Notes: a model not told the origin generated them from the sequence alone. Positions 43,076-63,873 are shown, counted from the stretch's first letter. The stretch: 64,000 nucleotides of DNA from an uncultured Gemmatimonadales bacterium (GCA_963851265.1 CAWKNZ010000008.1:96001-160000), one strand, 5' to 3'. Numbers and translations are program-made.

Positions 43076-43077
43076 GG

Positions 43078-48559: not shown

Positions 48560-48593
48560 GGCGGGCTCCTGCGGCGCGGGCGGTGAGGACGCG

Positions 48594-48794
48594 TTAGGCC
48601 TGGTGGTGGTGGCCGGCGCGGAGCGCCTCGGTCCAGGTGCGGGCGAGGCCGCCGACGACGGCTTCGAGGTCGTCTTCCGAGAGCTCGTCGTCGGCGGATG
48701 CCGCGCGCGGGGTTGCCGGCGCGTGGGCGATCGGGGTGAAGGCGATCGGAGGGAGGGCGGCGGCGGGGCGCGCGGGGGTGGGCAGCAAAGACAT
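48594..48794 (-). CDS. Short double-glycine precursor-like peptide (core LARTWTEALRAGHHHQA)
   Basis: ELSEDDLEAVVGG motif; first gene behind a sigma54 promoter. Confidence 0.65.
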   Translation of the reverse strand: MSLLPTPARPAAALPPIAFTPIAHAPATPRAASADDELSEDDLEAVVGGLARTWTEALRAGHHHQA

Positions 48795-48874
48795 GGGTCG
48801 GGGCCGGGAAGGGCGTGACACCGGGTCCGGTCGCGTGGGGCGCCGGGTGGGGGCGGTCTGACGCGCTGTCGAAG

Positions 48875-49001
48875 GGCAACCGCCGTTCCGACCTTGTCAC
48901 GAACGTAAGCGACGGCGTCGCAACGACTTGCGTTCGAAGCCGGGGCCGCGTTCCGGTCCGAATGCGCCACCCGCCACTATCTCGTAGAGCGCGGGGTCTA
49001 C
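48875..49001 (-). promoter_or_regulatory. sigma54 promoter + IHF-like site + UAS of the export operon
   Basis: cGGAACGGCGGTTGCc (48890-48875); CAACGACTTG near 48920; GTAGAGCgcggGGTCTAC at 48984-49001. Confidence 0.75.
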
Positions 49002-49095
49002 GGGCGGCGGCGGACGTCGTGAGCGCCCGAGCAGCCGCGCGGTTGCCTAACGATCCGGACCCGTCTGAGGCGGCGTCGGGCGGCGCGAACGCACC

Positions 49096-49126
49096 GCGGG
49101 CCCCCGCCGTGGTGGCGGGGGCCCGC
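49096..49126 (-). terminator. Perfect 13-bp GC hairpin downstream of the precursor at 49156
   Basis: gcgggcccccgcc-gtggt-ggcgggggcccgc; no U-tract. Confidence 0.5.
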
Positions 49127-49155
49127 GCGCATCCACCCGCACAGGCGTCGAGCCG

Positions 49156-49350
49156 TCAGGCGGTCGTGTCGCCGAGGACCGTGCCGATCGTGGGCAGCAC
49201 GGGATCAAGGATGATGATCGGAGCGATGATCGGGCCGCCGATCGGGCCGAAGTGGCCGACGGACGCGCCGCCGGCGACCGACTCAAGGGCCTCGTCGCTC
49301 AGGGTTTGCTCGTCCGACGGCTTGACGTTCTGCTCGCTGTTGCTGGACAT
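49156..49350 (-). CDS. Short double-glycine precursor (core ASVGHFGPIGGPIIAPIIILDPVLPTIGTVLGDTTA)
   Basis: TLSDEALESVAGG; GAGAGG RBS. Confidence 0.8.
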   Translation of the reverse strand: MSSNSEQNVKPSDEQTLSDEALESVAGGASVGHFGPIGGPIIAPIIILDPVLPTIGTVLGDTTA

Positions 49351-49402
49351 CAGAATACCTCTCACGGTTGGGATTCGGCCCGGGGTGGGCGACCGCCCGA
49401 GG

Positions 49403-49531
49403 GGCAAGCGCGGGACCGGCCGGCGGGGTCGGCGCAAGTCGCACACGTGCAACACGTTAGGCTCGCGCGCGCGGCCGCGCCGCAGGCCCGGCCTGGCGCC
49501 CTGCCGCGACCGGCTAGAGCTGTGGCTCCAC
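49403..49531 (-). promoter_or_regulatory. sigma54 promoter + IHF-like site + UAS
   Basis: cGGTCCCGCGCTTGCc (49418-49403); CAACACGTTA near 49450; CTAGAGCtgtgGCTCCAC at 49514-49531. Confidence 0.75.
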
Positions 49532-50140
49532 AGGCGGCGGCCCTCTACCGGGGGGCGCCTCGTGCGGCACGTCGCCGGTATCGAGGAGGAGCTCGACGCG
49601 CGAACGGTTCGCAGCAGCGCCGGTGCGCCGAACGGCGCGGTACGCGCGGTCGAAGCCGCGCGCGACCGCCGCACCCGGTTCGGGGACGACCTGCCCGAAA
49701 GATTCCGTTAGACGCTCGCGGCTACCCGCGATCCCGCCGTCGACCGACCCGCGCTCAGTCGCGTCGGCATACGCGCTCGGGAACAGACTTGTGCTGAGCA
49801 GCGTCGCGTCGTAGATCGCGCGGCGCGCTCACGCCCGCTGCGCCGTCGGGGTGAGCGCCGCCTCGAGGTCGAGGAGCAGCGGGTGCTCGCCGGACGGGAC
49901 GACGCTCTCGGATTGCGCTCTCCATCGCCGCCGTCGAGCGTCGACCGTCGAACATCCGAGAGACCGCGCGGAACGCCGAGAGCCTCCGGGCGGCAGCCGG
50001 GGTGGGAACGCTGCCCACTGGCGCGACACGCCGGCGGCCGACCACGGTCGGCCGCCGGTCGTCCAGCACCCGCGATGCCTAACACACGCGAGGGCGTCCG
50101 GCTGCTATCCGCCGGACGCCGCCCAACGTGCCACGCATCA

Positions 50141-50335
50141 CTACAGTTGTGGAAGCGTCGGGACGATCCACGGCGGCAGGCCTCCCGGGCCGCTGGTACC
50201 CATTTCGCAGCCGCCGGCGACGTTTTCCAGGGCCTCGTCGCTCAACTCCTCAACGGGCGGTTCGGTCGTGTCAATCTGGGACGCGCGCTGCGTGTTGTCC
50301 TGGGCGACCTTCTGCTGCTTGGTGTCGTCCTGCAT
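50141..50335 (-). CDS. Short double-glycine precursor (core CEMGTSGPGGLPPWIVPTLPQL)
   Basis: ELSDEALENVAGG; GGAGA RBS. Confidence 0.82.
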   Translation of the reverse strand: MQDDTKQQKVAQDNTQRASQIDTTEPPVEELSDEALENVAGGCEMGTSGPGGLPPWIVPTLPQL

Positions 50336-50391
50336 GTGAGCAATCTCCGTGAGGGGTGGTCGGTGCGTGTCACCGCGGCGGTACCGACGAG

Positions 50392-50487
50392 GGCAAGTAC
50401 ACGGCCGCCCACCCCTGGCCCGTAACTCGTTGAGCCGCTTGTGATTGCGGCTCGGATGTCACGGCACAGATAGACCTGGGGCTCTAC
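50392..50487 (-). promoter_or_regulatory. sigma54 promoter + IHF-like site + UAS
   Basis: cGGCCGTGTACTTGCc (50407-50392); TCAACGAGTTA near 50423-50433; ATAGACCtgggGCTCTAC at 50470-50487. Confidence 0.75.
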
Positions 50488-50505
50488 GCGGTAGTACCGG
50501 GTCGC

Positions 50506-53499
50506 CTAACTACAGCACGCACGAGCGGGCAGGTCGGCTTGCAGCGGCGACGGGACGGCGCTCGGGTCGGATACGCGGAGGAGCGTGTACGCAACACCGG
50601 CGACGCCCCGCAGCAGCCCGGGCGAGAGCGATTCCGCGAGTGCCGGGTACGCGTAGCTCCGGCGGCGCCTCGCGCCCGCGACGACGCGCCCCGCGAGCAC
50701 GCGGGCGTTGTGGACGAACTCGGGCCGTCCAAGCGCCGCGGCCGCGGCGAGGTTGACCTCGACTCGCGCGAAGGCACCGCAGCAGAGCGTCCACGGTGCC
50801 CGGCCGTCCATCGCGGCGTCCGACGCCGCGCCAGCCAACGCGGAGCGCCACAGCGCCTGCTCGTCGCCCGTGCCGGCCTCCGCGGCGAGCGCCGCCGCGC
50901 ACGCAAGGCCCAATCCGGGCGTGCCGCGACACCAACCACGGATCGTCGACGGACCACGCCCGCACTCGCGGCCGTCCGCCGCAGCGGTCAACGCTGCGCG
51001 CACCTCCGGCGACGCGAACCGTTCGTCACCGGCGCGCGTGCCGAGCCGGAGGAGTGCGGCCACCACGCCGGGGGGCCCGTGACCGAACCCGGGCTCGCCA
51101 ACCCTCCACTCGCACCGCACTAGGAGCCACTCGCCCCAGGCCAGGGCGAGATCAAGGGCGTCGGCGTCACCCGTAACGCCGTGTACGGCGAGGGCCCCGA
51201 GTACGCCGCCCGCCGCGCCGGCGAAAACGTCCGCCAGCACGCGGGGACGCGGCGGGCCCATTCGCACGAGCGCCGCGCGTGCCGCTTCGAGTAAACCGGC
51301 GTCGCCGAGGAAAGCCGCCGCACTCGAGAGCGCATACGCGATGCCGCCCCACCCCACCGCCAGCCCGGGTCCGGACGACACGGTACGGCGCGCCGGCTGC
51401 CGCGCGGAGTCGCACACCGGGCGCAGCGCGCGGTACGCCCACTCAGTCGCCTCGTCCGCATCGATTCCGTGTCCGCGCAGCACGTACGCGTGTGCGGCGA
51501 AAAACAACCCGATCCCTGCCCGTCCCGCCTCCAACCCGTCGCCGGCGGCAGCGATCCACCGCTGACCCCCGCCGACATCCTGCGCGTACCAGCGCGCGCC
51601 GCCCCCGGGCGACGTCGCAGCGACCGACCGGAGCAACGCGGCGAGTTGCCCCGCCTCGGCGAGCGCCTGGTCCGGCGTCAGCGGAGCGCCGTCGACCGGC
51701 GCTGCGGCGTCATGATCGCTGTCCCTCCTGCGTCGATGCCGGTCGGCGGCTAACGCGATCTTGATGTGATGAAGTTGACGGCGAAGCCGCGCGTCGCTCA
51801 TCTGCGCGACCCCGCGCCGGACGCTCGCGTACCCCGACATGCTGGCGTACCCCGCGACGAGTACTTCGCCCCCGGGCCCACACAAGTCCGTGCCGTCGGC
51901 AGGGACGGTGAAGATGGGCACGTCCGACCGCTGCATGGCATCGCGCTCCGCGTCCAACGTGGGCCACAGCCCCGGCCGTTCAGCGGCGCGGAGGTACGGG
52001 CCGCGGAGGACGTCGAGCTCCGCCAGACGCTTGGCCTCCCCGCCGAGGAAGTCGGGGTGCGTCGTGCGGCGCAGCAGCACCAGATACACCGACGTCGCCC
52101 GCAATAACACGCGTGACGCTCCGCCCGCGAACGCGGCGAGCGGGCCGGTGCCGGAGAGGAGTTCGGCCCGGCGCGCGCCCAGAACCTGATACGTCCGCCG
52201 AAACCCGCGCTGCACGGCCGCCGCAGCCGCCGTCGCGTCATACCCCCGGACCGCGGTTCGCGGCTCACGGGCTTGCGCTTCCGATTGCGGGTCCGTTGGA
52301 AGGCGCGTACGCGAGCCCCAGTGCATGGCGTCCGTGTTGACCTGCGTCCACCACGGCCCGTCCTGCCCGGGCGCGGCGGCGCGGGCACTCGTGTCGAAGT
52401 TAGGCAATAGGATTCCGCCTTCTAGGTAGCCGACGCCGTTGCCGGCCACCCTCGCTTCGGGCAGCAACCCGGTGTCGAGCACGCTCGGCTCGAGCCCGTC
52501 GTGGGCGTGTGCTCCCTCCGACGGAACCGGCCGGCAAAGCACCTCCAAGTCGATCATCACGGGATGTTCACCGGCCGCCACCACGTTCTCGGAGTGCAAA
52601 TCGCTGCCGCGCAGCACGTGCGCGAGGCAGAGGACCGCGCCCATGCGCTCGAAGTAGCGCGCGGACGCTGCCTCGTCGGCACACGGCGACGCAGCCGCGT
52701 GCTCGGCCCACCCGTGCGTGCCGCGGTCCAAGACTCGCAGCGCACGTGGACGCGGGGTGCCAGGCGGTAAAGCCTTGTCTAGCCAGGCTACGAGTTCGGC
52801 GTACGCGACGTCGAACACCAGCGAACGCGGCTTGTAAACGACCGGGCCCCCATGCGGGGGGTGGAGGATGGCGACTTGTCGCGCGTGGGCGTGTGGGTCG
52901 GAAAGACCCGCCTCGACGCGCAGGATGCGCCCGACCTTCCCGCGCCCCAGCGCCGCCGCAACAGCACACGCGTCCGCGGCGAACCGGACGAGCAGCTCCG
53001 CCGTCGCGTCGACCCAGTCGGCGACTAACGTCGCGACGAGGCGCGCGAGCACGGGGTGGGCAGCGAACAGGTCGCCGAGCCCACCCGCGAGCTGCGCACG
53101 AACGAACGCGGCGTACGCGCCAGGGGGCCGGTCCGGGTACCCGGAGTTGTAAACCCGGTAGAGCGCGCGCGTCGACAGCTCGGAGACGCGGGCCAGCAGT
53201 ACCCGCTCAACCCCGGCGTGCGCGGCGCCGGTGAAGCACGCGTACGCCCGCCGTCCGGATGCACGGCGCACGCGCCGCCGCGCCACAACGAGCAGGGGCG
53301 CCCAGACGTGCTCGAAGGGGACCGGCGCCCCCGGCGTGAACGCGCGGTCGCGCGGCAGCACTGTGGCGCCGGGCGCAGCACGCGTCGCAATCCGGTATGA
53401 CGCGTGCCGCAGCTCCGTTAGGAGGGCCGCTCCGAGCCCGTCTTCCCTTGCGCCGTTCCCGCACCGCACGGACTCATTTCTGCGCGTCGTACCAGTCAT
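50506..53499 (-). CDS. lanM: Class II lanthipeptide synthetase LanM (copy 1, WC...CCG cyclase)
   Basis: SDPH, VVYKPR, DLHSENV, IDLE, SVLDTGLLP, DVPIF; cyclase GFGHG, WCRG, LCCG. Exact start is uncertain. Confidence 0.9.
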   Translation of the reverse strand: MTGTTRRNESVRCGNGAREDGLGAALLTELRHASYRIATRAAPGATVLPRDRAFTPGAPVPFEHVWAPLLVVARRRVRRASGRRAYACFTGAAHAGVERVLLARVSELSTRALYRVYNSGYPDRPPGAYAAFVRAQLAGGLGDLFAAHPVLARLVATLVADWVDATAELLVRFAADACAVAAALGRGKVGRILRVEAGLSDPHAHARQVAILHPPHGGPVVYKPRSLVFDVAYAELVAWLDKALPPGTPRPRALRVLDRGTHGWAEHAAASPCADEAASARYFERMGAVLCLAHVLRGSDLHSENVVAAGEHPVMIDLEVLCRPVPSEGAHAHDGLEPSVLDTGLLPEARVAGNGVGYLEGGILLPNFDTSARAAAPGQDGPWWTQVNTDAMHWGSRTRLPTDPQSEAQAREPRTAVRGYDATAAAAAVQRGFRRTYQVLGARRAELLSGTGPLAAFAGGASRVLLRATSVYLVLLRRTTHPDFLGGEAKRLAELDVLRGPYLRAAERPGLWPTLDAERDAMQRSDVPIFTVPADGTDLCGPGGEVLVAGYASMSGYASVRRGVAQMSDARLRRQLHHIKIALAADRHRRRRDSDHDAAAPVDGAPLTPDQALAEAGQLAALLRSVAATSPGGGARWYAQDVGGGQRWIAAAGDGLEAGRAGIGLFFAAHAYVLRGHGIDADEATEWAYRALRPVCDSARQPARRTVSSGPGLAVGWGGIAYALSSAAAFLGDAGLLEAARAALVRMGPPRPRVLADVFAGAAGGVLGALAVHGVTGDADALDLALAWGEWLLVRCEWRVGEPGFGHGPPGVVAALLRLGTRAGDERFASPEVRAALTAAADGRECGRGPSTIRGWCRGTPGLGLACAAALAAEAGTGDEQALWRSALAGAASDAAMDGRAPWTLCCGAFARVEVNLAAAAALGRPEFVHNARVLAGRVVAGARRRRSYAYPALAESLSPGLLRGVAGVAYTLLRVSDPSAVPSPLQADLPARACCS

Positions 53500-53650
53500 T
53501 CATCTTCTGTATCACCCAATCGATCACGTCACCGCCGGCAACGGACTCGAGTTCGTCGTCGTTGAGCACCCCATCGGCGTCCTCACGTGCCGGGGCGGTC
53601 GCGGTATCAGGGGTAGGGGGGGTGCTCGGGGTCTGCTCGGAATCCGCCAT
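53474..53650 (-). CDS. Short double-glycine precursor (core DVIDWVIQKMNDWYDAQK)
   Basis: LNDDELESVAGG; GGAGG RBS before ATG 53650. Confidence 0.8.
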   Translation of the reverse strand: MADSEQTPSTPPTPDTATAPAREDADGVLNDDELESVAGGDVIDWVIQKMNDWYDAQK

Positions 53651-53720
53651 GGTGGTGTCCTCCGGTGTGCGAAGCAGTGTGCGATTCGCCGCGTACGGCC
53701 GCCTTCGACCGTGATTCGAG

Positions 53721-53847
53721 GGCAGACGGCGTGCACGGCCCGCGGCTTTGCGCAAATCGTTGGTGCCTTGGACTTGCACGTTTCGATCGGCACCGTCGCC
53801 GCACGCATGTTGCGCCCCCGTGCCGGCCCGTAGAGCCAGGGCGCTAT
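53721..53847 (-). promoter_or_regulatory. Degenerate sigma54 promoter + IHF-like site + UAS
   Basis: gTGCACGCCGTCTGCc (the -24 GG is TG); CAACGATTTG near 53755; GTAGAGCcaggGCGCTAT at 53830-53847. Confidence 0.6.
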
Positions 53848-54135
53848 CGCCGCCCTGGTGGCGCGTCCTGAACATCGGCGCCGAACACCGCACAGCGATG
53901 TCCGCGGGGAAGGCCGGCAGCAATGTCACCACTCACCGCGGTGAAGCCGTGCAGCGCCCAACGACGCCGAGGGCGCGGACGCACACCGCCATCAAGGGCC
54001 GGTGCCCGTCGACGTGCCGGCCGAGTGGATCACAGCCACGCGGCGTATCGCCTAATACGGCTACGGCGCTGGGGCGACTGGAGCGTCGTCGGCAGAATGT
54101 CGGCCACGGCGTCAGCGTTGCCCGTTCGAACTCCG

Positions 54136-55285
54136 TCACTCGTACGCGTACACCACCTTCCCGAAGCGCTCGCGGTCGTTGAATGTGCGATTGAGGAACG
54201 GCGCGACGTCGTCACCGGTGAATACGGAATCTGTCACCACGAGCAGCGCGCCCGCGGCATAGTCGCTCAATGCCCGCTCAAGTCCGTCGCTGAGGCCGAT
54301 GCAGTTGCCGACGATCGACAAGTTCTTCATGATCGCGGTCTGGAGGAGACTGGTCAGCCCGAACGGATTCCACACCGGCAGTGCGCGCCGCGTGAGGACT
54401 CTGGCCCGCGAAGCCGCACGTGATGTACGTCCCGAACGGCTGCCAGCAGCTCCAACGCGTCTTCCGCGACATGCAGGTCGAAGAACGGATCCAGCACAGC
54501 TTGGAAGCTGGAGGCCCGCCGCGGCCACGGCCGCCGCAAGCGCGCCGGCAGTCCCGGGCTCACGGGGTGCCCCAGCAGCCGCACGCGGCACGACGAGGAC
54601 CTCGGACACTCCGAGCGCCCGAATCTCGTCGGCGCGATCTTCCGACGTCGTCGACGCGTAAATCTCCGCGCTGCTGGACGCGGAGTGCCCCGATGAGCGC
54701 GAGCGACGTGTTGGAACTTCCCGCCGTCACCAGCACCCGCGTCCCCGGGCCGATGCCGGCGCGCCGAACCATGCTGTATGCGGTCTGTGCGTTCAGCGCG
54801 AACCCGGCGGCGACTGCGTCCGGCATGCACGCCGGGATCGCGGCGAGCTTCTGTTCCGGGATCACCTGCCACTCGCGCGACGCACGGTTACTGACGACCC
54901 CTTCCCGCACGCCGCCAGGCGGCGTGGCCGCACCCGTGTAGTGCTGGTCGGGGACCACGCGGTCGCCCGGGCGGAGCCCCGTCACCTCCCGCCCGACCGC
55001 GGCGACGACGCCGGTGAATTCTGAGCATATCGGAACGAAGCGGCGCGGCGGCACCGACGCCATCAGGCGGACGAAGGCGCGGTCACGGTAGTTGCACGAT
55101 GTGGCCGTGACTCGTACGAGCACCCGGCGCGCATCGTCCGCCCCCTGCGGGTCGAACCGCGGCGGCGACGTGTGAACGACGCCGCACCCGACGGTCGCGC
55201 CGTCTACGGTGACGGCCCGAGGGGCGCCGAGCCCAGCGGTGCTCAGCCGGCGCGCGCGGCCCCCAAATACGACGACGTTTCGCAT
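54136..55285 (-). pseudogene. Zn-dependent MDR dehydrogenase, LanJ(A)/LtnJ-like, with about 4 frameshifts (real or sequencing errors)
   Basis: SCNYRD, SEFTGVV..VG..V..L.PGDRV, QTAYSMVRR, VLVTAGSSNTS; then in shifting frames AEIYASTTS, VLDPFFDLH, FGTYITCG, KNLSIVGNCIG, RFGKVVY. Confidence 0.7.
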
Positions 55286-55322
55286 CAGCGTGAGGGGCAG
55301 GGTAGGTGGGGACCCCAGCGTG

Positions 55323-58300
55323 TTAGGCCCACAGGAGCACATTCGGGACGACGTCCGGCGCCGCCAGCCGCAGCAACTGGTAGCCGATCCCGGCGCTCCC
55401 CTGTGCAAGTCCTACCGCGATCGCCCCCCATCCGGTGTTGTACGCGCCGTCGACGCTGGCGCGCGCCATCACGTGGTCGGCGGCACCGCGGGCCTCGGCG
55501 ACGAGTTCGGGGCGGCGGAGGTGCCGCCCCGCACTCAGCAGAAGCTCGGTACGCCCCATGACGCCGCAGCACAGCGTGTCCGGGCCGGCGAGGAGCCGGT
55601 CCCGCGTGCGGCGCACGGCGGCATGCACCTCGGGTGAGACGTCCGGCCACGCGTCGGCTGCATCGGTCGCGGGACGGGTCACGGCCAGCCGGGCCAGACC
55701 GATGCCGCCCGCGCCGCGAGCCCACGCGGCCCGCGCGTCGTCGTCCCCCGAGAGCCCGCAGAGTTCTGGGCCCAGCACGGTGCGCTCGTACGCGAAGGCG
55801 TCCGCCGACGCCGACGCGAAGCGGGCCTCGCCGGTCGCTGTGGCCAGGCGGTGCAGCGCGTACGCGATCCCCGCATGCCCGTGCGCCATGCCAGTCTCGG
55901 GCTGGCCGCGCGGGCCGGGCCAGTACCCCGCCGCCGTCGCGCCGGCGCCTTCCCGCCGCCGCAGCAGGTGGTCGCCCAGCGCCACGGCGCGCTCCAGCGC
56001 CGCGCCGCCCGGCGCGTCGGCGAGCGCGAGCAGGCCGAGGATCGCGCCAGCCGACCCGGCCATCAGGTCACCACTGTCCCGTTCCTCGACGCACGCGACG
56101 TCGATCAGCGCGGCAACATCGGCGGCGGCGTGCATTGTCGCGGTGTCGTTAACGAGGGTACCCAGGCGGGCGAGGGCGTACGCCGTGGAGCCGAGGCCGG
56201 TGCCGGCGCCTACGTCCGTCCAGCGCCGCACGCGCACGGAGCGTCGCAGGTCGGGGAGGTGGGCGTGGAGCGGACGCAGTGACGCGAGCGCCTGGTCCGC
56301 GAACCGCCCGTCGCCTGTGACCCTGGCCAGCACCGCCAGGAAGAGGGCGAAGCCCACGTATCCGTCGAGCAGGTTCGCTGGCGCCGCGCCGAGCACGTAG
56401 CGTCGCGACGCCGCGTGGTACATGGGCGCGACCCACGCCCCCACCGCACACCGCCGCGCGCGCGACCGGGCGATCACGCGCTCCGCGATGGCGACGCCTG
56501 CGGCGAGCGCGCGGTCCGTGAAACCGTCGCCGGCCGCGGCGGCCGTGTCCGAGGGAATCGGCACCCCGGCGACCTTCGCGCGGCGGGCCCGCCGCTCCGC
56601 CGGCGGAGCGGCGGGCCCGCGCACGTCGTCCACGTCGACGGCCGCGAACGAGGCGCGGATGAGCTCGACCTGCGCCTCCTCGTCCTCGGGGCTGAGCGCG
56701 CGCATGCGCCGTACGGCCATGTCGAATGCCGAGGTCCGGAAGCACCCCTCGATCACGTCTCCGGTCGGAAGCACCAAGGCGGTGCTGTCCGCGTCGGCCG
56801 TGAACAGGGGAATGTCGAGCCGCTCGAGTGCTTCTTGCTCGGCGCGCAGGACGGGCCAGATCGTCGGCCGATCGGCGCGCGTCAGGAACGTGCGGCACAG
56901 CACGTCCAGCTCCACGCCGCGGCGCACGCCGTCGCGCAACAGGTTGGGGTGGTTGCAGCGCTCGAGCAGCGCCGCGTACAGGCTGGTGTTGCGCAGGATG
57001 AAGCGGACGCGCTGCCGCCGCATGCACGCGATCGGGCCACCCGGCGCCAACACCTCGTCGCGGCCGGCGAGGAGGGCGGCGTAGGTCCGCCGGAACCCCA
57101 CGACGAGCGCCTCCACGTGCTCACGCGCGGTAACCGCGCGGCCGTTCACCATCGGGAGGTTCGCGGGGTGCCGTTGGGCCGGCGCGCGCACTCGAACGGG
57201 CCGCATGGCCGCCGTATTCGCGGCAACCCACGTGCTGACCACCGAGTCGTCGGTGGGCTGCGCGCCCGCGCGAAACGCGCCCACCTCAACCGCCCCCCCC
57301 GAGTCGTCGACCTTGAGTTGTGGCAGCATGTGCAAGGCGAGCACGGAATCGAACAGGAAACGGCGGGCGGTTCCGTCGGCCATCGCCTGGTCGGGCGGCT
57401 CGTCGGTCGGCGCGAAGTCAGGGCTGAGCAGCGTCTCCAGATCGATGAGCACCGGCTGGTCGCCGGCAGCGATCAAGTTTTCGAAGTGGAAGTCCGATCC
57501 GTTGAGCGCGTACGCGATGCACAACAGCGCCCCGCACCGCTCGTAGAACCGGGCGACGTCGCCCTCGCGCGCGCACGGGGCGTGGGCGGCGAACTCCAGC
57601 CACCCGTGTGTCGGGCGCGCCACCACGCGCAACGGCGCCAGCGACAGCGCGGGCGCGCGGGCGTTGAGCCACCGCGCGAGGTCGCCGAAGCACTCCTCCA
57701 GCCCGACCGGGCGCGGCTTGTAGACCACCCGGTGGCCGCCGGCAAAGTGTAGGATCATCACGCCGCGGCCGCCCTCGTGCGGATCGGAGAGCGAGCACGA
57801 GAGGTCGACGACGGGGCCGAGCGGCTTCCCACCCGCCAGCACGTCGCGGATGCGCTCCGCGTCGTCGGCGAGGCGCGCGATCAGCTCCGCTGCGGCTTCA
57901 ACCCACAGGTCGACGATCGTCGCACACAGCCGAGCGGCCACGGGATACTCGACGAAGAACGCCCGCATGCCGCCGGCGCGCATGCCCGCGACGAAATCCG
58001 CGTACGCGTCGCCCGCCGTCGGCCCCATGCCCAGTGCCGCGTGCCGGCAGACCCGGTCGACCGAGAACGACACGAACAGCGCGCGCGCGCACGTCTGGCT
58101 GAGCCGCTGGAGGGCGGCTCCTTCCAGCGCGGCGTGCGCCTGCGGGGTCAGGAGGTCGTGCGCCGGCCCGACTCGCGCCCGTACGCGCTCGCGAGCGACC
58201 CGCATGAGCGGCGCGAATACGTCGCCGAACGCCACGGCAGCCGCGCCGCCGGCGGACGGCACCTCGACCGCTTCGGCGGCGGGCGCCGCTTGTAGCCGCG

Positions 58301-58610
58301 GCCCGTACGCGGCTGTGAGTGTGGCCGACCACCCGAGGTCGGCCGGCGTCGGGTCGGTGTCCCCCAGCATCCGCGCGACCACCGCGGGATCGAGCCCGTC
58401 CCACGTGAGGCGCCGATGAAGGCTGGGCCAGTCACCGCGGCTGAGGGTGGCGCACCACCCCTGCAGCTCGGGCGGTTGGACGCCCGCGTCGTGGCCCGCG
58501 TCGTGGCCCGCGCTACGCCGCCGCACACCATCGAGCCGAGACTGAAGTGTGGCGGCGCGCGTGAGCGAGAGCAGGACGGCGCCGTCGCGGGCGGTGTGAG
58601 CAAGCGTCAT
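55323..58610 (-). CDS. lanM: Class II lanthipeptide synthetase LanM (copy 2, cyclase motif WC changed to WA)
   Basis: SDPHEGG, VVYKPR, DFHFENL, IDLETL, DIPLF; cyclase GMAHG, WARG, LCCG. Confidence 0.92.
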   Translation of the reverse strand: MTLAHTARDGAVLLSLTRAATLQSRLDGVRRRSAGHDAGHDAGVQPPELQGWCATLSRGDWPSLHRRLTWDGLDPAVVARMLGDTDPTPADLGWSATLTAAYGPRLQAAPAAEAVEVPSAGGAAAVAFGDVFAPLMRVARERVRARVGPAHDLLTPQAHAALEGAALQRLSQTCARALFVSFSVDRVCRHAALGMGPTAGDAYADFVAGMRAGGMRAFFVEYPVAARLCATIVDLWVEAAAELIARLADDAERIRDVLAGGKPLGPVVDLSCSLSDPHEGGRGVMILHFAGGHRVVYKPRPVGLEECFGDLARWLNARAPALSLAPLRVVARPTHGWLEFAAHAPCAREGDVARFYERCGALLCIAYALNGSDFHFENLIAAGDQPVLIDLETLLSPDFAPTDEPPDQAMADGTARRFLFDSVLALHMLPQLKVDDSGGAVEVGAFRAGAQPTDDSVVSTWVAANTAAMRPVRVRAPAQRHPANLPMVNGRAVTAREHVEALVVGFRRTYAALLAGRDEVLAPGGPIACMRRQRVRFILRNTSLYAALLERCNHPNLLRDGVRRGVELDVLCRTFLTRADRPTIWPVLRAEQEALERLDIPLFTADADSTALVLPTGDVIEGCFRTSAFDMAVRRMRALSPEDEEAQVELIRASFAAVDVDDVRGPAAPPAERRARRAKVAGVPIPSDTAAAAGDGFTDRALAAGVAIAERVIARSRARRCAVGAWVAPMYHAASRRYVLGAAPANLLDGYVGFALFLAVLARVTGDGRFADQALASLRPLHAHLPDLRRSVRVRRWTDVGAGTGLGSTAYALARLGTLVNDTATMHAAADVAALIDVACVEERDSGDLMAGSAGAILGLLALADAPGGAALERAVALGDHLLRRREGAGATAAGYWPGPRGQPETGMAHGHAGIAYALHRLATATGEARFASASADAFAYERTVLGPELCGLSGDDDARAAWARGAGGIGLARLAVTRPATDAADAWPDVSPEVHAAVRRTRDRLLAGPDTLCCGVMGRTELLLSAGRHLRRPELVAEARGAADHVMARASVDGAYNTGWGAIAVGLAQGSAGIGYQLLRLAAPDVVPNVLLWA

Positions 58611-58745
58611 GGTGCGGCGTCGGGCGTGGCGAGGGCGGTGACCGAGGACGTGGTGAACTCCTGCCGGCAGGCCGGCCCGAGGCGCGGGCAGCGGTGGTCG
58701 GCTGCCGCGCGCCCCGAACGTCGGCGTGGCGCCGGCGGGAGTGGG

Positions 58746-59126
58746 TCAGTGCGTGGCCAGGTAGACGTCGGCGCCGGCGAGCGCGCCGGCAAGCGCCCAG
58801 AGGGCGATGGCAGCTAGCGGCGGCGACCCGCCGGCGACGGCTTCCAACTCCTCGGCCGACAGCTCGACGTTCGGGTCGACGAAGTCCGGCAGCACGAGCG
58901 TCGCGTCGCCCTGGTTCTCGACGAACTTCACGTTCCACGTGGCGTGCAGCTCCTCGGCTGGGCGGCCGACGAACTCGGCGAGCGCGGCGCGCGGGTCGGC
59001 GATGAGCTTGGTGCGGAAGCCGCGGTCCGTGGCCGACCGGGAGAGCATCGACCGGATGGCATCTTCGGCCTGTTTGGCGAAGGCAGGATTCGTGGCGAAC
59101 AGTTCGGCAGTCTGGCGCGTGTCCAT
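58746..59126 (-). CDS. NHLP-leader precursor (core SPPLAAIALWALAGALAGADVYLATH)
   Basis: SRSATDRGFRTKLIADP, KFVEN..DATLVLP, ELSAEELEAVAGG. Confidence 0.9.
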   Translation of the reverse strand: MDTRQTAELFATNPAFAKQAEDAIRSMLSRSATDRGFRTKLIADPRAALAEFVGRPAEELHATWNVKFVENQGDATLVLPDFVDPNVELSAEELEAVAGGSPPLAAIALWALAGALAGADVYLATH

Positions 59127-59164
59127 GACGGGGCCCTCTGGGGTGAAGGTGTTGGGTGGGAGCG

Positions 59165-59533
59165 CTACTTGGTGGCGGCCTGCGCCGCCCATGCGCCGAC
59201 GGCCATGCTACCGACGAAGATCATGAGCCCGATGGCGATCGGATCCGAGCCGCCGGAGACCGCCTCGAGCTCCGACTCCTGCAGCTCGGCGTCGGGGTCG
59301 ACGAACGGGGGAAGCACGAGGGTGGCGTCGGCCGTGTTCTCGACGAAGCGCACGTCCAGGCGCTCGGGGAACGCGGCGCCGAGCGCCTCGTGGAGGGCCG
59401 CACGGGGCTCGTCGAGGAGCTTGCGGCGGAAGTCGGCGTCGGTGGCGGAGCGCGTCAGCACGGAGCGGATTTGGGCGATCCCCTGCTCCGCGAGCTCGGG
59501 GTGCTGCTGGGCGATGGCGACGGTCGTGTTCAT
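59165..59533 (-). CDS. NHLP-leader precursor (core SDPIAIGLMIFVGSMAVGAWAAQAATK)
   Basis: TRSATDADFRRKLLDEP, RFVENTADATLVLP, ELQESELEAVSGG. Confidence 0.9.
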   Translation of the reverse strand: MNTTVAIAQQHPELAEQGIAQIRSVLTRSATDADFRRKLLDEPRAALHEALGAAFPERLDVRFVENTADATLVLPPFVDPDAELQESELEAVSGGSDPIAIGLMIFVGSMAVGAWAAQAATK

Positions 59534-59633
59534 GAGAGTGGGTGGCGGTGGGTCAGGGTGGTGGGACGCGCGGGCTGGCGTCGGCGGACGTTAGGCGTTC
59601 GGGGGCGCCCCGCGGCGGGGGCACCGGCCGCCG

Positions 59634-60001
59634 CTACTTCATGTCCGAGATCATCTTGATCGCGGAGATGACCCCGAGGATGCTCGCGACGATCGAGCCG
59701 ATGCACGGGTCCGTTCCGCCGGCGATGGCCTCGAGCTCCGACTCTTGGAGCTCGGCCTCGGGATCGATGTAGTCCGGGAGCACGATCGTGGCGTCCGCCG
59801 TGTTCTCGACGAAGCGCAGGTCGAGGTCGCCGATGTCGCCGCCGGTCGCCTCCTGGAGCGTCTCGCGGGGCTGCGCGATCAGGCGCTGGCGGAACGCGTG
59901 GTCGGTGGCCGACCGGCTGAGCACGGTCCGGATCCTGTCGTGGTACTCGCGGACCTCCTCGGGCGGTCGGCGGCGATGCGCTCGATCGTTTCGACGTTCA
60001 T
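59634..60001 (-). CDS. NHLP-leader precursor (core TDPCIGSIVASILGVISAIKMISDMK); 1-nt frameshift near 59962
   Basis: AGGAG RBS + ATG 60001 MNVETIERIAADRP, then after a shift in a C-run EEVREYHDRIRTVLSRSATD...ELQESELEAIAGG. Confidence 0.85.
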
Positions 60002-60081
60002 GGTGCGGCTCCTGTTGGGAGAAGGGTGATGGTAACGACATGCAACAAAATCGGGGTGCTGTCCGATCGGTCCTCTCGGAG

Positions 60082-60208
60082 GGCAACGCGCGTACCTCGC
60101 GCGGCGGTCACGTAAGCCGTTGGTGTACAACGACTCGCACGTACGCGCCGTCGCCGCGACCGGCGCCGCGGCGCGCCCGCGCTCTACGGCGTAGGGCCAC
60201 GGCTCCAC
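60082..60208 (-). promoter_or_regulatory. sigma54 promoter + IHF-like sites + UAS of the NHLP-lanM operon
   Basis: aGGTACGCGCGTTGCc (60097-60082); TAAGCCGTTG...CAACGACTCG at 60113-60137; GCTCTACggcGTAGGGCcacgGCTCCAC at 60181-60208. Confidence 0.8.
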
Positions 60209-60355
60209 CGCCGGGCGGCGGGTGGGTCGGGCGGCGAGCGCACCCGACGGAGGGCGCGGCAGGCGGGCGCGGGCGCACGGGTCTTGCACGCGCCGACGGC
60301 GTGCGCGGGGGCGCCCCGCGAGTCCGCGCCGCCACCATCTTCACATAAAAGCGTC

Positions 60356-60526
60356 ATGACAACAAACCAGCAGTACGGCGTCACGTACTTTGCCGTCGGC
60401 ACGGCGATGATCGCCTTCTACGGATTCACCTGGTACCGCCGACAGCCCCTCACGTTGATGCTCGTCATGGGGATCCTCTGCTTGGGGATGGGCGTGCTGC
60501 GCTACTTCGCCCGCGCACGCCCGTAA
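60356..60526 (+). CDS. Small membrane protein with two TM helices
   Basis: MTTNQQYGVTYFAVGTAMIAFYGFTWYRRQPLTLMLVMGILCLGMGVLRYFARARP. Confidence 0.6.
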   Translation: MTTNQQYGVTYFAVGTAMIAFYGFTWYRRQPLTLMLVMGILCLGMGVLRYFARARP

Positions 60527-60665
60527 TGCGGAGCCGTTAGACGCGCGCCCGTTCGGGGAGGAACGGGCGTGGCGCCGCGACGACGGCCGCCCGCGCGAGC
60601 AGGCCAGGGTGTGACCGGGAAGCACGGTAAGGCGCGCGCGACGTCCGCGGGCGTCCGCGGCGGCG

Positions 60666-60710
60666 GTGTACGAGCGCTTCCGGCGCTGGTCGCGGGCGGG
60701 CGTGTGCCGG
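60666..60710 (+). pseudogene. Possible short IS5-family transposase scar
   Basis: VYERFRRWSRAGVC resembles the IS5-family TVYxRFRRWxxxGVW motif. Confidence 0.3.
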
Positions 60711-61093
60711 GTCGTACGCTGGGGGGAGGCCGCCCGGCCGCATGCCGGCGCGCGACCGCGCCTCGTACCGCCGGTGCAACGTCGTCGGGCGCCTCGCGGC
60801 GCGGCGCACCGAGCGCCGCCCGCTGGTAGGCGCTGCGCGAAGCTCGTGCGACGCGACCTCGCCGTCGGGAAGCCCGCGAGGCTCGCGTGGCACCTCGCGC
60901 TCATCCGACCCGACATACCGCGCCCCGCTGCGCCAGCGTGGGGCGCCGCGGGGGTGAGTCAGTTACTTGCTGAACTGCGCGATCGCGGCCCGCGCGTCCT
61001 GCACGAACAGCTGGCGGAAATCAACCGCACGCCGATTTCCGCTTCGGTAGTACTCACGCGATTCGCGGTGAGGTGCCCCGTACTGGGCACACG

Positions 61094-62392
61094 TCACCGC
61101 TCGGTCGACGGCGCGCCCACCCGCGCACTGGCCGCGCCCGGTTTGAGGTCGTGGTGCCGCAGAAAGTCCATAAACTTCAAATAGTCCCCTTCCGCGATCG
61201 CAAACAGCCCGAGCACCCGCTTGTAACTCCCCCGCGTCGCCACGAGCCCCCGCTCCACCACCAGCCGCACCTCGGCGCGACTCAGCTCGCGCTCCATGTA
61301 CGGCCCGTGCACCAGCTCCCAGAACGTCCCCTCCCCCGCCAGCATCCGCGCGTACGGGTCCGCCCCCGCGGCACCGACGGCCCGCGTGCCGCCCGGCGGC
61401 GTCATCACCGGCACCCCCCGCAGCTCCTCGCTGCACGCCGCCCCCTCCAGCGCCTCGCCGAAGTCCCGGGCCTCGATGGTCGCCCCCTCGCACACGTAGT
61501 AACCCGTGTCGACGAGGCTCCGGAGCTCGCGCACGTTCCCGGGCCACGCGTACCGGCCTAACACCACGAGCGCGTGCGCCGAGAACCGCTTGCGCGACCC
61601 CTCCGCCTTCACCACCCGCTCCAGGTAGTGCTCCAGCACCAGCCGCCAGTCGTCGCCGCGCTCCCGGAGCGACGGCACGCGCACGTGCAGGTGCCGCAGC
61701 CGGTAGTAGAGGTCCGCGCGGAACCTCCCGCTCTCGACCATCGGCCGCAGGTCGCGGCTCGTCGCGGCGACCACCCGCACGTTGATCCGCTTGCTCTGCG
61801 TCGTCCCCACCGACAGGATCTCGCCCTCGCCCAACACGCGCAGCAGCATCGCCTGCGCCGTGACCGAGAGCTCGCCGACCTCGTCGAGGAACACCACCCC
61901 ACCGTCGGCCTCCTCGAACACGCCGCGGTGGTCACCGACGGCGCCCGTGAACGAGCCCTTGCGGTGCCCGAACAGCTCGCTCGCCAGCAGCTGGCCGTCG
62001 TGGTACTGCGCGCAGTTCACGGCGAGGAACGGCTTGCGGCTGCGGCGACTCAGCAGGTAGACCGCCCGGGCGAACAGCTCCTTGCCCGTGCCCGTCTCGC
62101 CCGTCACCAGCACCGGCCCGTCCGCCTCCGCGAAGCGCGCCGCGCGCTCCAGCGCCTGCGTGAGCGTCTCGTGCGACCCCACCACCGACACCTCGCGCGC
62201 CTCACCCCACCGTTCGCGCGACAGCTCGGCGATGCGCCGGCTGACGAACGACGCGGCGGGGGCGTCGGCCGCGCCGCGATCCGCCAACGTGTGCCCCAGT
62301 GCTCCACCGGCCGCCGGACTGTACGCGGCTCCTCCGGCCGTCCCGCCGAGCCCGCGCCGCGTGACGACCGACTGCTCCACCGCACTCATCAT
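61094..62392 (-). CDS. sigma54-dependent enhancer-binding protein with no N-terminal receiver or sensor domain
   Basis: GETGTGKE, SELFGHRKGSFTGA, FLDEVGEL, RFRADLYYRL, WPGNVREL. Confidence 0.93.
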   Translation of the reverse strand: MMSAVEQSVVTRRGLGGTAGGAAYSPAAGGALGHTLADRGAADAPAASFVSRRIAELSRERWGEAREVSVVGSHETLTQALERAARFAEADGPVLVTGETGTGKELFARAVYLLSRRSRKPFLAVNCAQYHDGQLLASELFGHRKGSFTGAVGDHRGVFEEADGGVVFLDEVGELSVTAQAMLLRVLGEGEILSVGTTQSKRINVRVVAATSRDLRPMVESGRFRADLYYRLRHLHVRVPSLRERGDDWRLVLEHYLERVVKAEGSRKRFSAHALVVLGRYAWPGNVRELRSLVDTGYYVCEGATIEARDFGEALEGAACSEELRGVPVMTPPGGTRAVGAAGADPYARMLAGEGTFWELVHGPYMERELSRAEVRLVVERGLVATRGSYKRVLGLFAIAEGDYLKFMDFLRHHDLKPGAASARVGAPSTER

Positions 62393-62523
62393 GTGTCGCT
62401 CCGGATGCCCGCCCGTACGCCAGTGGTGCCGGCGAGCGGGGCCGCGCCGGCGCGTGAGCGGCGGGAGGCCCGCCCTCACGCCCCGACGGTATGGTCGGAC
62501 GCGCGGCCCGCGGACCTCTCCGG

Positions 62524-62653
62524 GACGAGCGGAGCGAACCGCGTGACGGACGGGGTCTGGCGCGTGACCAACGGGCGCGCGGCCCGCGGCGGGCGGTGTG
62601 CCGCCGCCCGAGCCCGGCTGCCGTCCGCTCGTCCGGCCCGGCCTCCGCTCGTC
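62524..62653. promoter_or_regulatory. LytTR/AlgR-like direct-repeat boxes in a divergent intergenic region
   Basis: Minus strand: CCGCTCGTC, CCGTCCGTC, CCGTTGGTC at 62524/62545/62566 (21-bp period). Plus strand: CCGCTCGTC at 62625 and 62645. Confidence 0.6.
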
Positions 62654-62829
62654 ACGCCGCGGGGCGGGTTGGCACATGTGGGACGCGACACCGGCGCCGG
62701 GCGCACCTATCGTCTCGCCCGCCGGACGTCAGGCTACCGGCGCCGGAGCGGTCCCACGTCGCACGGCACCCCCCGAGACTCGCCCCCGCTCGACCCCCCT
62801 CCGACGACCGCCCCGGCGGCAGGTGTCAC

Positions 62830-62916
62830 ATGGAAACGATCCTCCACTGGCTCGGCATCCTGCACGGCGTCATCTCGCCCACACCGGTCCACGCCGACCC
62901 GCCGCCCTCCGCCTAA
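62830..62916 (+). CDS. Putative 28-aa peptide METILHWLGILHGVISPTPVHADPPPSA
   Basis: AGGTG RBS-like sequence, ATG 62830, TAA; coding-like codons. Confidence 0.45.
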   Translation: METILHWLGILHGVISPTPVHADPPPSA

Positions 62917-62997
62917 CCGACGACCCCGGCCGGCGTCCGCGCCGGCCCGCCCGCCGGCCCGAACGACGGCTACGTCGTGGCCGTCACCTCGTCGTCG

Positions 62998-63873
62998 TCA
63001 CGTCGTGAAGTAGAGCCGCTGCTCCAGGCGCTCGCGGTATCGCCGGCTGCACGCCACGCGCGTGCCGTCGTGCAACACCAGATCCACGTCGCCGTGGTCG
63101 CCCGGGTCCACGACCGCGACGCGCGACAGGTTGACGATCGTCGACCGGTGCACGCGCACGAACCGCGACGGGTCGAGCACCTCGCGCTCCAGCGTGGCGA
63201 GCGACTTCGAGACGAGCCGCGGCCGCTTCTGCACGTACACGCGCGAATAGTTGCCGTCCGCCTCGATCCAGTCGACGTCGGCCACGCGCACCACCGCGTA
63301 CTGCGCGCCCGCCCGGATCGCGAGCGCGTCGGGGTAGCGGGGCCGGCCGGGGTTCGCGACGAGCTCGAGCAGCAGCTGCATCCGGGGGTCGGCCGCGAGC
63401 GCGTCCCCGCGCGGCAGTTCCGGCGCGGGCGCCGCGGCGCCTGCCGAGGTCCGGTCGCCGGCCCGGTCCCGGCGCACGGCGAGCTCGCGGCGCACGCGCT
63501 CGAGCGCCTGCAGCAGCCGCCCCGCGTCGAACGGCTTCAGCACGTAGTCGATGGCGCACGCCTCGAACGCGCGCACCGCGAACTCGGAGTACGCCGACGT
63601 GAAGATCACCGGCGGCATGGCCTCCGCCCCGACGCGGCCCACCACCCCGAAACCGTCGAGCCCGGGCATTTGTACGTCGAGCAGCACTAAATCCGGGCGC
63701 GCGGCGCCGATCAGGGCGACCGCGGACTCGCCGTCGCCGCACTCGCCGACGATCTGCACGTCGGGACTCGCGTCGAGCACCTCGCGCGCGCGGCGTCGCG
63801 CGCCGGCGTCGTCGTCGACGATGAGGACGCGGAGGGTCACGTCGGGTCCTGCCGCGGGAAGGGGAGCGGACAC
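62998..63873 (-). CDS. LytR/AlgR family response regulator (REC + LytTR)
   Basis: VLIVDDD, LLDVQMPGLDG, DYVLKP, WIEADGNY, FVRVHRSTIVN. Confidence 0.95.
   Translation of the reverse strand: MSAPLPAAGPDVTLRVLIVDDDAGARRRAREVLDASPDVQIVGECGDGESAVALIGAARPDLVLLDVQMPGLDGFGVVGRVGAEAMPPVIFTSAYSEFAVRAFEACAIDYVLKPFDAGRLLQALERVRRELAVRRDRAGDRTSAGAAAPAPELPRGDALAADPRMQLLLELVANPGRPRYPDALAIRAGAQYAVVRVADVDWIEADGNYSRVYVQKRPRLVSKSLATLEREVLDPSRFVRVHRSTIVNLSRVAVVDPGDHGDVDLVLHDGTRVACSRRYRERLEQRLYFTT

Follow-up and report, generated by a model that had tools for sequence, protein, structure and literature searches.

A predicted sigma-54 regulon of five promoters with phased enhancer palindromes in an NHLP/LanM peptide cluster of an uncultured Gemmatimonadales bacterium

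The DNA analysed here is a stretch of 64,000 nucleotides, hereafter the window, from an uncultured Gemmatimonadales bacterium (GCA_963851265.1, CAWKNZ010000008.1:96001-160000; G000:C8:96001-160000 in our numbering), whose genome of 4.6 Mb has 73% G+C and is represented by 12 contigs. Positions are counted from the first letter of the window. An NHLP/LanM peptide cluster occupies 39860-60100 on the minus strand and comprises five transcription units, P1 to P5, each preceded by a promoter-like GG-N10-GC element, an A/T-richer box and an imperfect palindrome; beside the cluster lies the gene for a sigma-54 activator, or bacterial enhancer-binding protein (bEBP). A first-pass annotation had described this three-part layout, and all of its elements were seen when the five regions were read on the minus strand, with chance controls favouring the motif. 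With the activator gene as query, the nearest public relatives of the locus were found to be Gemmatimonadaceae assemblies.

All genes of the cluster lie on the minus strand. Unit P5 contains three NHLP-leader precursors (58746-60001), a LanM gene (55323-58610) and an alcohol-dehydrogenase-like gene (54136-55408), and unit P4 contains a small double-glycine peptide (53474-53650) which overlaps a second LanM gene (50506-53499). Units P3 and P2 each consist of a stand-alone double-glycine-leader peptide (50141-50335 and 49156-49350, respectively). Unit P1 opens with the gene for a fourth small peptide (48594-48794), which heads an export operon encoding a TolC-like protein (46664-48559), an NHLP-system HlyD (45405-46667) and the NHLP ABC exporters ABC1 (43078-45408) and ABC2 (39860-43225). 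The NHLP system is recognised by TIGR03794 (355 bits), TIGR03796 (1083) and TIGR03797 (912), all above the NCBIfam cut-offs, and both LanM genes exceed their cut-off of 304 bits, with 703 and 494; TIGR03793 gives 55.5 bits (cut-off 50.9) for one of the three NHLP precursors and 40 and 37 for the others. Each of the two stand-alone peptide genes is followed by a strong hairpin (z = -3.5 and -4.9), and the same analysis found none 3' of the operon-leading peptides, a distribution that fits the division into five transcription units. The units start with double-glycine-leader peptides, not all of which are lanthipeptide precursors. Cores of class II lanthipeptide precursors hold Cys and Ser/Thr; here, Cys is present in only two of the seven double-glycine cores, despite the presence of two LanM genes. 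Several are hydrophobic, in the manner of class II bacteriocins, and the core of 53474-53650 has no Cys, Ser or Thr.

Four of the five upstream regions carry the sequence GG-N8-TTGCCCY (minus strand, anchored on the GG), and the fifth carries a degenerate version. The element of P1 (GGAACGGCGGTTGCCCT, 48889-48873) is predicted to drive the 48594-48794 peptide and the export operon, that of P2 (GGTCCCGCGCTTGCCCC, 49417-49401) the 49156-49350 peptide, that of P3 (GGCCGTGTACTTGCCCT, 50406-50390) the 50141-50335 peptide, the degenerate element of P4 (TGCACGCCGTCTGCCCT, 53735-53719) the 53474-53650 peptide and LanM 50506-53499, and that of P5 (GGTACGCGCGTTGCCCT, 60096-60080) the three NHLP precursors, LanM and the alcohol-dehydrogenase-like gene. 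These are the elements of the first-pass annotation, which had placed them one base too high. The spacing of a sigma-54 promoter (GG, exactly 10 nt, then GC, with TTGC at -12) is found in four of the five. Across the 9.2 Mb of both genome strands, 54 exact copies of GG-N8-TTGCCCY are present, and the four that carry a palindrome (up to two mismatches) 30-160 bp upstream are all in this cluster. At one mismatch, the count of the promoter word does not exceed expectation (23 against 26.9); thus the signal resides in the exact word and in its coupling to the palindrome.

The imperfect 18-bp palindromes, at 48984, 49514, 50470, 53830 and 60191, are all where they had been reported, with one or two mismatches to GTAGAGC-N4-GCTCTAC, and the distances of 94, 96, 63, 94 and 94 bp from promoter element to palindrome were reproduced. 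From the first base of the palindrome to the first G of the GG, the distances are 112, 114, 81, 112 and 112 bp for P1 to P5. On the minus strand, the putative enhancer of P1 (48974..49001) reads GTAGACC-ccgc-GCTCTAC-gag-ATAGTGG, a palindrome plus a third half-site; that of P2 (49514..49531) reads GTGGAGC-caca-GCTCTAG, with an extra GTAGAGG half-site 17 bp upstream (49548-49542); that of P3 (50470..50497) reads GTACTAC-cgc-GTAGAGC-ccca-GGTCTAT, with the third half-site on the upstream side; and those of P4 (53830..53847) and P5 (60181..60208) read ATAGCGC-cctg-GCTCTAC and GTGGAGC-cgtg-GCCCTAC-gcc-GTAGAGC. As P1, P3 and P5 each have a further TAGAG-type half-site 3 bp from the 18-bp palindrome, the enhancer looks like an array of 7-bp half-sites in alternating orientation, with centres 10-11 bp apart. 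The palindrome that had been proposed as the enhancer would be its core, the third half-site having been missed.

The palindrome is commoner in the window than expected by chance: at up to three mismatches there are 13 matches against 2.47 expected, and none of 100 shuffles reached 13. Genome-wide, 36 matches are found at up to two mismatches, six of which fall within 14 kb at this locus (Poisson P ~2e-9). A 6-mer count of the five upstream regions, made with no prior motif, ranks GCTCTA/TAGAGC and CTCTAC/GTAGAG first (five of five regions).

Between promoter element and palindrome, 26-42 bp upstream of the GG, all five units have a conserved A/T-richer box. The IHF-like CAA-N4-TTR that had been reported here is exact in four of the five, at -26 from the GG in P3 (CAACGAGTTA, 50432-50423) and P5 (CAACGGCTTA, 60122-60113), at -27 in P4 (CAACGATTTG, 53762-53753) and at -41 in P1, but P2 has TAA-N4-TTG at -42. 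The IHF-like block of P1 spans 48904..48930 (minus strand, as are the other boxes), with CAAGTCGTTG at -41 and with CGCTTACG, TTA 19 bp before the GG. A block from -42 that resembles GCAAGTCGTTG and a block at -26 (CAACGNNTTRCG) align within 1 bp in all five regions. CAA-N4-TTR has only 401 occurrences genome-wide, and CAACGA/TCGTTG ranks third in the 6-mer count (four of five regions). Judged from its sequence, the box may be a site of IHF action.

The genome encodes rpoN once (one Sigma54_DBD match of 216 bits, in a 711-aa open frame) and about 11 genuine sigma-54 activators, only one of them in the cluster. This activator (61097..62392, minus strand; ~431 aa) has a short N-terminus, an AAA+ domain and a C-terminal helical domain ending in DYLKFMDFLRHHDLKP; it matches Sigma54_activat (PF00158, 206.6 bits) and AAA_lid_14 (58.6 bits) and has Walker motifs and a KGSFTGA loop. 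The bEBP of the first-pass annotation, at 61094, is thus a sigma-54 activator, but its start is at 62392 rather than 62677 and it has no sensory domain. Conservation with the same-genus genome G004 sets in at the Met at 62392, with none at the protein level upstream of it, and Pfam finds no domain before residue 166 of the long frame, whereas most groups of bEBPs, though not the PspF/HrpRS group, have an N-terminal regulatory domain (receiver, GAF, PAS or V4R). All 86 database clusters that contain the C-terminal domain of the activator are 258-466 aa long and have generic names only. As the activator has no sensory domain, its amount is probably the regulated quantity; no sigma-54 promoter was seen upstream of the activator gene itself.

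In 19 orthologues, drawn from several phyla, the last 60 residues of the activator are strongly conserved, and all 19 share an invariant final helix, DYLKFMDFLRH. An AlphaFold model of the C-terminal domain (pLDDT 82) is a five-helix bundle. A sequence search of PDB with the C-terminal profile returned chance-level rows only (E >= 0.3), and Foldseek found no PDB match at E <= 0.001, Fis appearing at E > 4. A wider structural search reached Z <= 4.2, with weak best matches that include the DNA-binding domains of NtrC4 (3.9), NtrC1 (3.8), TyrR (3.6) and NtrX (within 3.6-3.9), as well as Fis (3.8). These matches, which stand among unrelated helical proteins of equal Z, hint at a possible DNA-binding domain of the Fis/NtrC type. 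The subfamily comprises at least 86 sequence clusters, with related loci in Longimicrobium, Kofleriaceae, Rhodothermales and one gammaproteobacterial assembly, and was detected in five of 301 sampled genomes of the phylum, with 16 candidates per genome scored.

We compared the locus with 21 places that encode full-length orthologues of the activator (51-84% identity): G004 and 20 public assemblies from Gemmatimonadaceae, Gemmatimonadales, Longimicrobium/Longimicrobiaceae, Kofleriaceae and other Myxococcota, Rhodothermales and one gammaproteobacterial metagenome-assembled genome. Double-glycine or NHLP peptides are found at 11 of these places, NHLP HlyD at ten and LanM at five. A composite pattern of GG-N8-TTGC plus YAA-N4-TTR matched nothing in the orthologue loci. 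Their palindromes differ from the consensus at three or more positions and were found by reading (260 nt upstream of peptide genes) and by position weight matrix (PWM). For example, a Longimicrobium contig has ATAGAGC-cgga-GGTCTAG-cgg-CTAGAGC 114 bp before GGCATCCGAGTTGCCCA, and a Gemmatimonadaceae contig has ATAGATC-cccg-CCTCTAC-gcg-CTAGCAC 102 bp before a promoter identical to P5; a promoter in locus L014 and that of P5 are identical over 17 bp. G004, in which the coding DNA is ~70% identical, keeps GCTCTAT-cga-ATAGATC, CAA-N4-TTG at -27 and GGTACGGGCGTTGC. Promoters at the orthologue loci often have the canonical form GGCAY-N5-TTGC (for example GGCATGTAGAATGC, GGCATCCGAGTTGC and GGCATGGGGATTGC); of 11 promoters with a palindrome, seven precede precursors with a GG leader or of the NHLP type under a scripted choice of open reading frames, and an eighth, at L027, probably does as well.

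A PWM built from the five sites of the window found 11 palindromes in 325 kb of orthologue loci, with 12 pairs formed with a downstream GG-N9-TGC, as against nine palindromes and no pairs in 957 kb of paralogue loci (a control pool that includes one 3.8 kb locus of the unpublished genome G011, on which no claim rests). In a laxer scan, a palindrome lies 60-139 bp upstream of 17 of 128 sigma-54-like sites at orthologue loci and of seven of 542 control sites (P = 2.5e-8 by Fisher's exact test, overstated because related genomes are not independent). The layout thus recurs beside orthologues of the activator in Gemmatimonadales, Longimicrobium and Kofleriaceae and not beside paralogous activators. 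The spacings fall into classes of 81, 91-93, 102, 110-115 and 123 bp, in steps of about one helical turn (Rayleigh R = 0.74 at a period of 10.5 bp, 18 distances, P ~5e-5; R = 0.79, P ~0.007 with the 110-114 class collapsed to one value). This periodicity indicates that the enhancer keeps to one helical face, which is what looping predicts.

Upstream of the activator gene, and adjacent to it, are genes for a LytTR-type response regulator (62998..63873, minus strand) and, directly upstream of that, a LytS-type histidine kinase which runs beyond the window (window-equivalent 63912-66308). Three 9-bp direct repeats, CCGTTGGTC, CCGTCCGTC and CCGCTCGTC, lie at 62522..62574 on the minus strand (starts at 62574, 62553 and 62532), exactly 21 bp apart from start to start and 130-180 bp upstream of the activator start, which on sequence corresponds to the pattern of a LytTR operator (direct repeats of ~9 bp, ~21 bp start to start). 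A CCGYYSGTC triple with 21-bp spacing is found once in the genome, among 2147 single matches, and is kept in G004 as CCGCTCGTCAC, CCGTTCGTCAC and CCGCTCGTCAT. The core site of the AlgZ/AlgR LytTR system is CCGTTCGTC, according to a source that also names AgrA and PlnC/D as family members (PMC4064291); the middle copy in G004 is this core. The AlgZ/AlgR system resembles the present one in having an adjacent kinase and LytTR regulator, here with 9-bp direct repeats that are AlgR-core-like and spaced by 21 bp. Unlike in AlgR-type systems, the repeats here precede the activator gene and not the peptide genes, so that the LytTR step would sit one tier above the sigma-54 regulon. The AlgR-like repeats and the adjacent genes suggest a cascade in which the kinase would act through the LytTR regulator on transcription of a constitutively active activator, and the activator on the five promoters; we give this upper step about even chances. 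The triple was also recorded at L093 8910-8962, and two inverted copies of the repeat lie just upstream of it on the plus strand (~62625-62655).

The DNA itself shows the motifs, how rare they are, that their spacing is fixed and phased and that they are conserved beside orthologous activators; these observations suggest that the five regions are probably enhancer-dependent sigma-54 promoters forming a pathway-specific regulon of this NHLP/LanM double-glycine-peptide cluster, which would make ribosomally synthesised and post-translationally modified peptides (RiPPs) or bacteriocins. We also consider it likely that the palindromes are bound by the cluster activator, as the first-pass annotation had proposed; recurrence at the orthologue loci, the phased spacing and the invariant helix argue for this. 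A LytTR gene stands beside the activator in two of the 21 orthologue places, the two closest relatives, and palindromes occur in many places that have none, so that the activator is the best candidate binder. No other factor encoded in the cluster tracks the motif, and sigma-54 promoters require an activator.

Binding, bending, start sites and the cascade are predictions of this interpretation. Sigma-54 RNA polymerase would form a closed complex on GG-N10-GC, and the sensor-less activator (61097-62392) would bind the TAGAG-type half-site enhancer, with the 18-bp palindrome as its core, via its C-terminal helical domain, 81 or 112-114 bp upstream of the GG and on one face of the helix. The CAA-N4-TTR/TTACG block would be bent, most probably by the genome's IHF-like protein; the bend would carry the activator oligomer to the polymerase, and ATP hydrolysis would open the promoter. 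The seven peptide genes, the two LanM genes, the reductase-like gene and the TolC/HlyD/ABC export operon would then be co-induced. The LytS-type kinase and the LytTR regulator, for their part, would activate the activator gene through the three AlgR-like repeats with 21-bp spacing.

Several observations weigh against this interpretation. In P4, TG replaces GG and CTGC replaces TTGC, so that the features of a sigma-54 promoter are not present there; TG at -24 is strongly deleterious in studied sigma-54 promoters. P4, which has no first G in its -24 GG, may be weak, and its unit may depend on read-through from P5. The -24 elements of the cluster are also weak beyond the GG. As for the bend site, the consensus of IHF is WATCAANNNNTTR, and the CAA-N4-TTR box has no match to its WAT part; the box is shifted or degenerate in P1 and P2, several Longimicrobium promoters have T-rich tracts in its place, and of the two HU/IHF-family genes of the genome, the one that matches the IHF models best reaches 88 and 83 bits against NCBIfam cut-offs of 115 and 111. 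Pfam recognises no helix-turn-helix in the activator, and the NtrC and Fis rows of the structural search are mixed with unrelated helical proteins of equal Z. A strict consensus scan (up to two mismatches) of the 21 orthologue loci gave one match in 293 kb, which is no enrichment; those loci were chosen by the activator, and another factor that always co-occurs with it could explain the motif. One spacing, 99 bp at L023, is out of phase, and the 21-bp repeats were not found in L014, where a LytTR gene is present.

Of the other explanations, the one that survives best, though we consider it unlikely, is that the sigma-54 promoters are activated by another of the roughly ten activators of the genome and that the palindrome is the operator of a different factor, such as a repressor or another cluster protein. 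The genome does encode about 11 activators, the local one has no recognised helix-turn-helix, and the orthologue loci were selected via the activator itself. A palindrome centred ~100-130 bp from the start site and phased with the helix, however, fits an enhancer and not an operator; moreover, the layout tracks orthologues of this activator across phyla and is absent from the 957 kb around paralogues, and the C-terminal helix is invariant. We give still less weight to the possibility that the LytTR regulator binds the palindrome or the CAA-N4-TTR/TTACG block and activates the units directly, GG-N10-GC being incidental. The regulator and kinase genes do flank the cluster, and bacteriocin loci of Gram-positive bacteria are under LytTR regulators. 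LytTR sites, on the other hand, are direct repeats, which are found separately upstream of the activator gene, while palindromes and GG-N10-GC recur where the DNA examined has no LytTR gene (19 of the 21 places) and the promoters of the relatives are of canonical sigma-54 type. A search of 48000-61000 found no sigma-70 consensus promoter and three terminator-like sites, as many as by chance, which counts against this explanation weakly at 73% GC. It is most improbable that the similarity reflects a recent duplication of a promoter cassette together with peptide genes, under no present regulatory constraint: the five regions do share several blocks in the same order, and the promoters of P5 and L014 are identical over 17 bp, but only the motif blocks and their spacing are conserved and not the intervening DNA, other orders and phyla have the blocks too, in front of different peptides, and the spacing changes by whole helical turns.

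PspF and HrpR/HrpS are activators with no N-terminal sensory domain, and the cluster activator resembles them in its predicted composition of an AAA+ domain plus a C-terminal DNA-binding domain only. An activator built in this way has to be controlled by how much of it is expressed or by a partner protein, and for the cluster activator no partner resembling PspA or HrpV was identified. It is not an equivalog of PspF (TIGR02974, 229 bits against a cut-off of 443) and its C-terminal domain is different. The classical architecture of enhancer, IHF and sigma-54 promoter, of the NifA/nifH and NtrC/glnA type, is described in PMC7910581. The regulon proposed here shares with those systems a promoter of the GG/GC form, a predicted site for the activator 80-150 bp upstream with a putative bend element in between, and an AAA+ activator of the GAFTGA type; it differs in its RiPP/bacteriocin target and in its three alternating TAGAG-type half-sites, and the cluster activator, unlike NifA and NtrC, has no receiver, GAF or PAS domain and has a predicted DNA-binding domain that Pfam does not recognise.

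Sigma-54 and enhancer-binding proteins have been linked to natural products before. According to PMC7910581 and a survey of natural-product sigma-54 promoters in Myxococcus (PMC3665592), such control is known for loci of polyketide synthases (PKS) and of non-ribosomal peptide synthetases (NRPS), and the former reports that Nla28 of Myxococcus xanthus regulates natural-product genes from sigma-54 promoters. As there described, Nla28 is like the system proposed here in that sigma-54 and an enhancer-binding protein act directly on secondary-metabolite genes via repeated half-sites; it is, however, a developmental regulator with a global role, which acts on PKS/NRPS loci and has the half-site CT(C/G)CG(C/G)AG, whereas here the activator is cluster-encoded and would be dedicated to ribosomal peptides. 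The NHLP bacteriocin system of Haft et al. 2010 (PMC2887384) has, as here, NHLP leader precursors, the NHLM HlyD and the ABC1 and ABC2 exporters, and the present locus extends it by a predicted regulatory circuit; a search of that paper for sigma, regulator, transcription and promoter found no occurrence. Our literature search found no report of sigma-54 control for NHLP or lanthipeptide clusters. The mechanism is a textbook one, to which the regulon, the array of half-sites and the subfamily of activators add new members.

The analysis provides a complete and testable circuit plan for a ribosomal-peptide cluster that looks silent, in Gemmatimonadota, a phylum with few cultured members and almost no genetics, and names one activator and its predicted target of 18-28 bp. 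It predicts that co-expression of the sensor-less activator in any sigma-54-proficient host should turn on all five units, and the C-terminal domain missed by Pfam could be used in genome mining to flag regulated clusters of NHLP or double-glycine peptides.

Further candidate sites were considered and set aside. The first-pass annotation had expected that a genome-wide scan might reveal orphan precursors; this was not borne out, as the additional palindrome and promoter candidates were all judged to be chance matches. Palindromes at C2:724620 and C11:3562 are inside long open frames, and GG-N8-TTGCCCC with CAA-N4-TTG at C2:420523 is in a coding-looking stretch. A sixth palindrome in the window (63010-63027, two mismatches) encodes LEQRLY at the end of the LytTR gene; it was judged a chance match, no promoter partner was found for it, and the same place in G004 has three mismatches. 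A strong sigma-54 look-alike, AAGGCACCAACGATTTGCG (53750-53768, minus strand), lies across the IHF-like box of P4; it was rejected for its GG-N12-GC spacing of 12 and not 10 nt. GGCCGCGTACTTGCCCC is present in three identical copies with identical upstream sequence (G000 C10:194797, C10:214713 and C6:1164) and is a repeated element. An Rfam scan of 48000-63100 found no family.

Two genes of unit P5 show irregularities. The alcohol-dehydrogenase-like gene (54136-55408) is in two reading frames, relative to the intact G004 orthologue (377 aa) the frame changes between 54680 and 54378, and this split is either a frameshift or an assembly error. The first NHLP precursor has an ATG at 60001 with a good Shine-Dalgarno sequence but in a different frame from the NHLP homology, which starts at 59963, and an in-frame ATG at 60041 with no Shine-Dalgarno sequence, which points to either a one-base indel or an unusual start. 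Between P5 and the activator gene, an 80-aa open frame on the plus strand (60284-60526) has two hydrophobic stretches and no family match; its product could be an immunity-type membrane protein. Beyond the window, at L097 3587-6435 (G000:C8:162587-165435), a Cys-rich precursor with repeated CxVC is followed by a YcaO-ThiF fusion (PF02624, 197 bits; PF00899, 76 bits) divergent from the kinase gene, and no palindrome-promoter pair was seen before these genes.

A small peptide family is common to several loci, with a leader of the form ...EL(E/D)xVVGG and a core that starts L-(A/E/S)-R-x-(W/Y), and it may be a signal peptide. If so, it might be the autoinducer, as might the short DTDxCxxW-type cores of the relatives, of a peptide-signalled circuit of a Gram-negative phylum in three tiers (a LytS-type kinase with a LytTR regulator, as at bacteriocin loci of Gram-positive bacteria; a sensor-less sigma-54 amplifier; and five phased promoters) in which the secreted peptide, itself a product of the regulon, would close a positive loop by way of the co-induced exporter. 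We regard this as a speculative reading with a small chance of being correct in all its parts; if true, the activator family, with its unrecognised DNA-binding domain, would act as a transferable master switch that serves RiPP clusters of the NHLP type across several phyla. Members of the peptide family are the 48594-48794 peptide of the window and those at L014 20734, L016 6352, L018 11203, L026 1330 and L037 8040; in L014, L016, L026 and L037 the peptide lies directly 3' of a short-core NHLP-like precursor, which in L016, L026 and L037 is of the GGGDTDxCxxW type.

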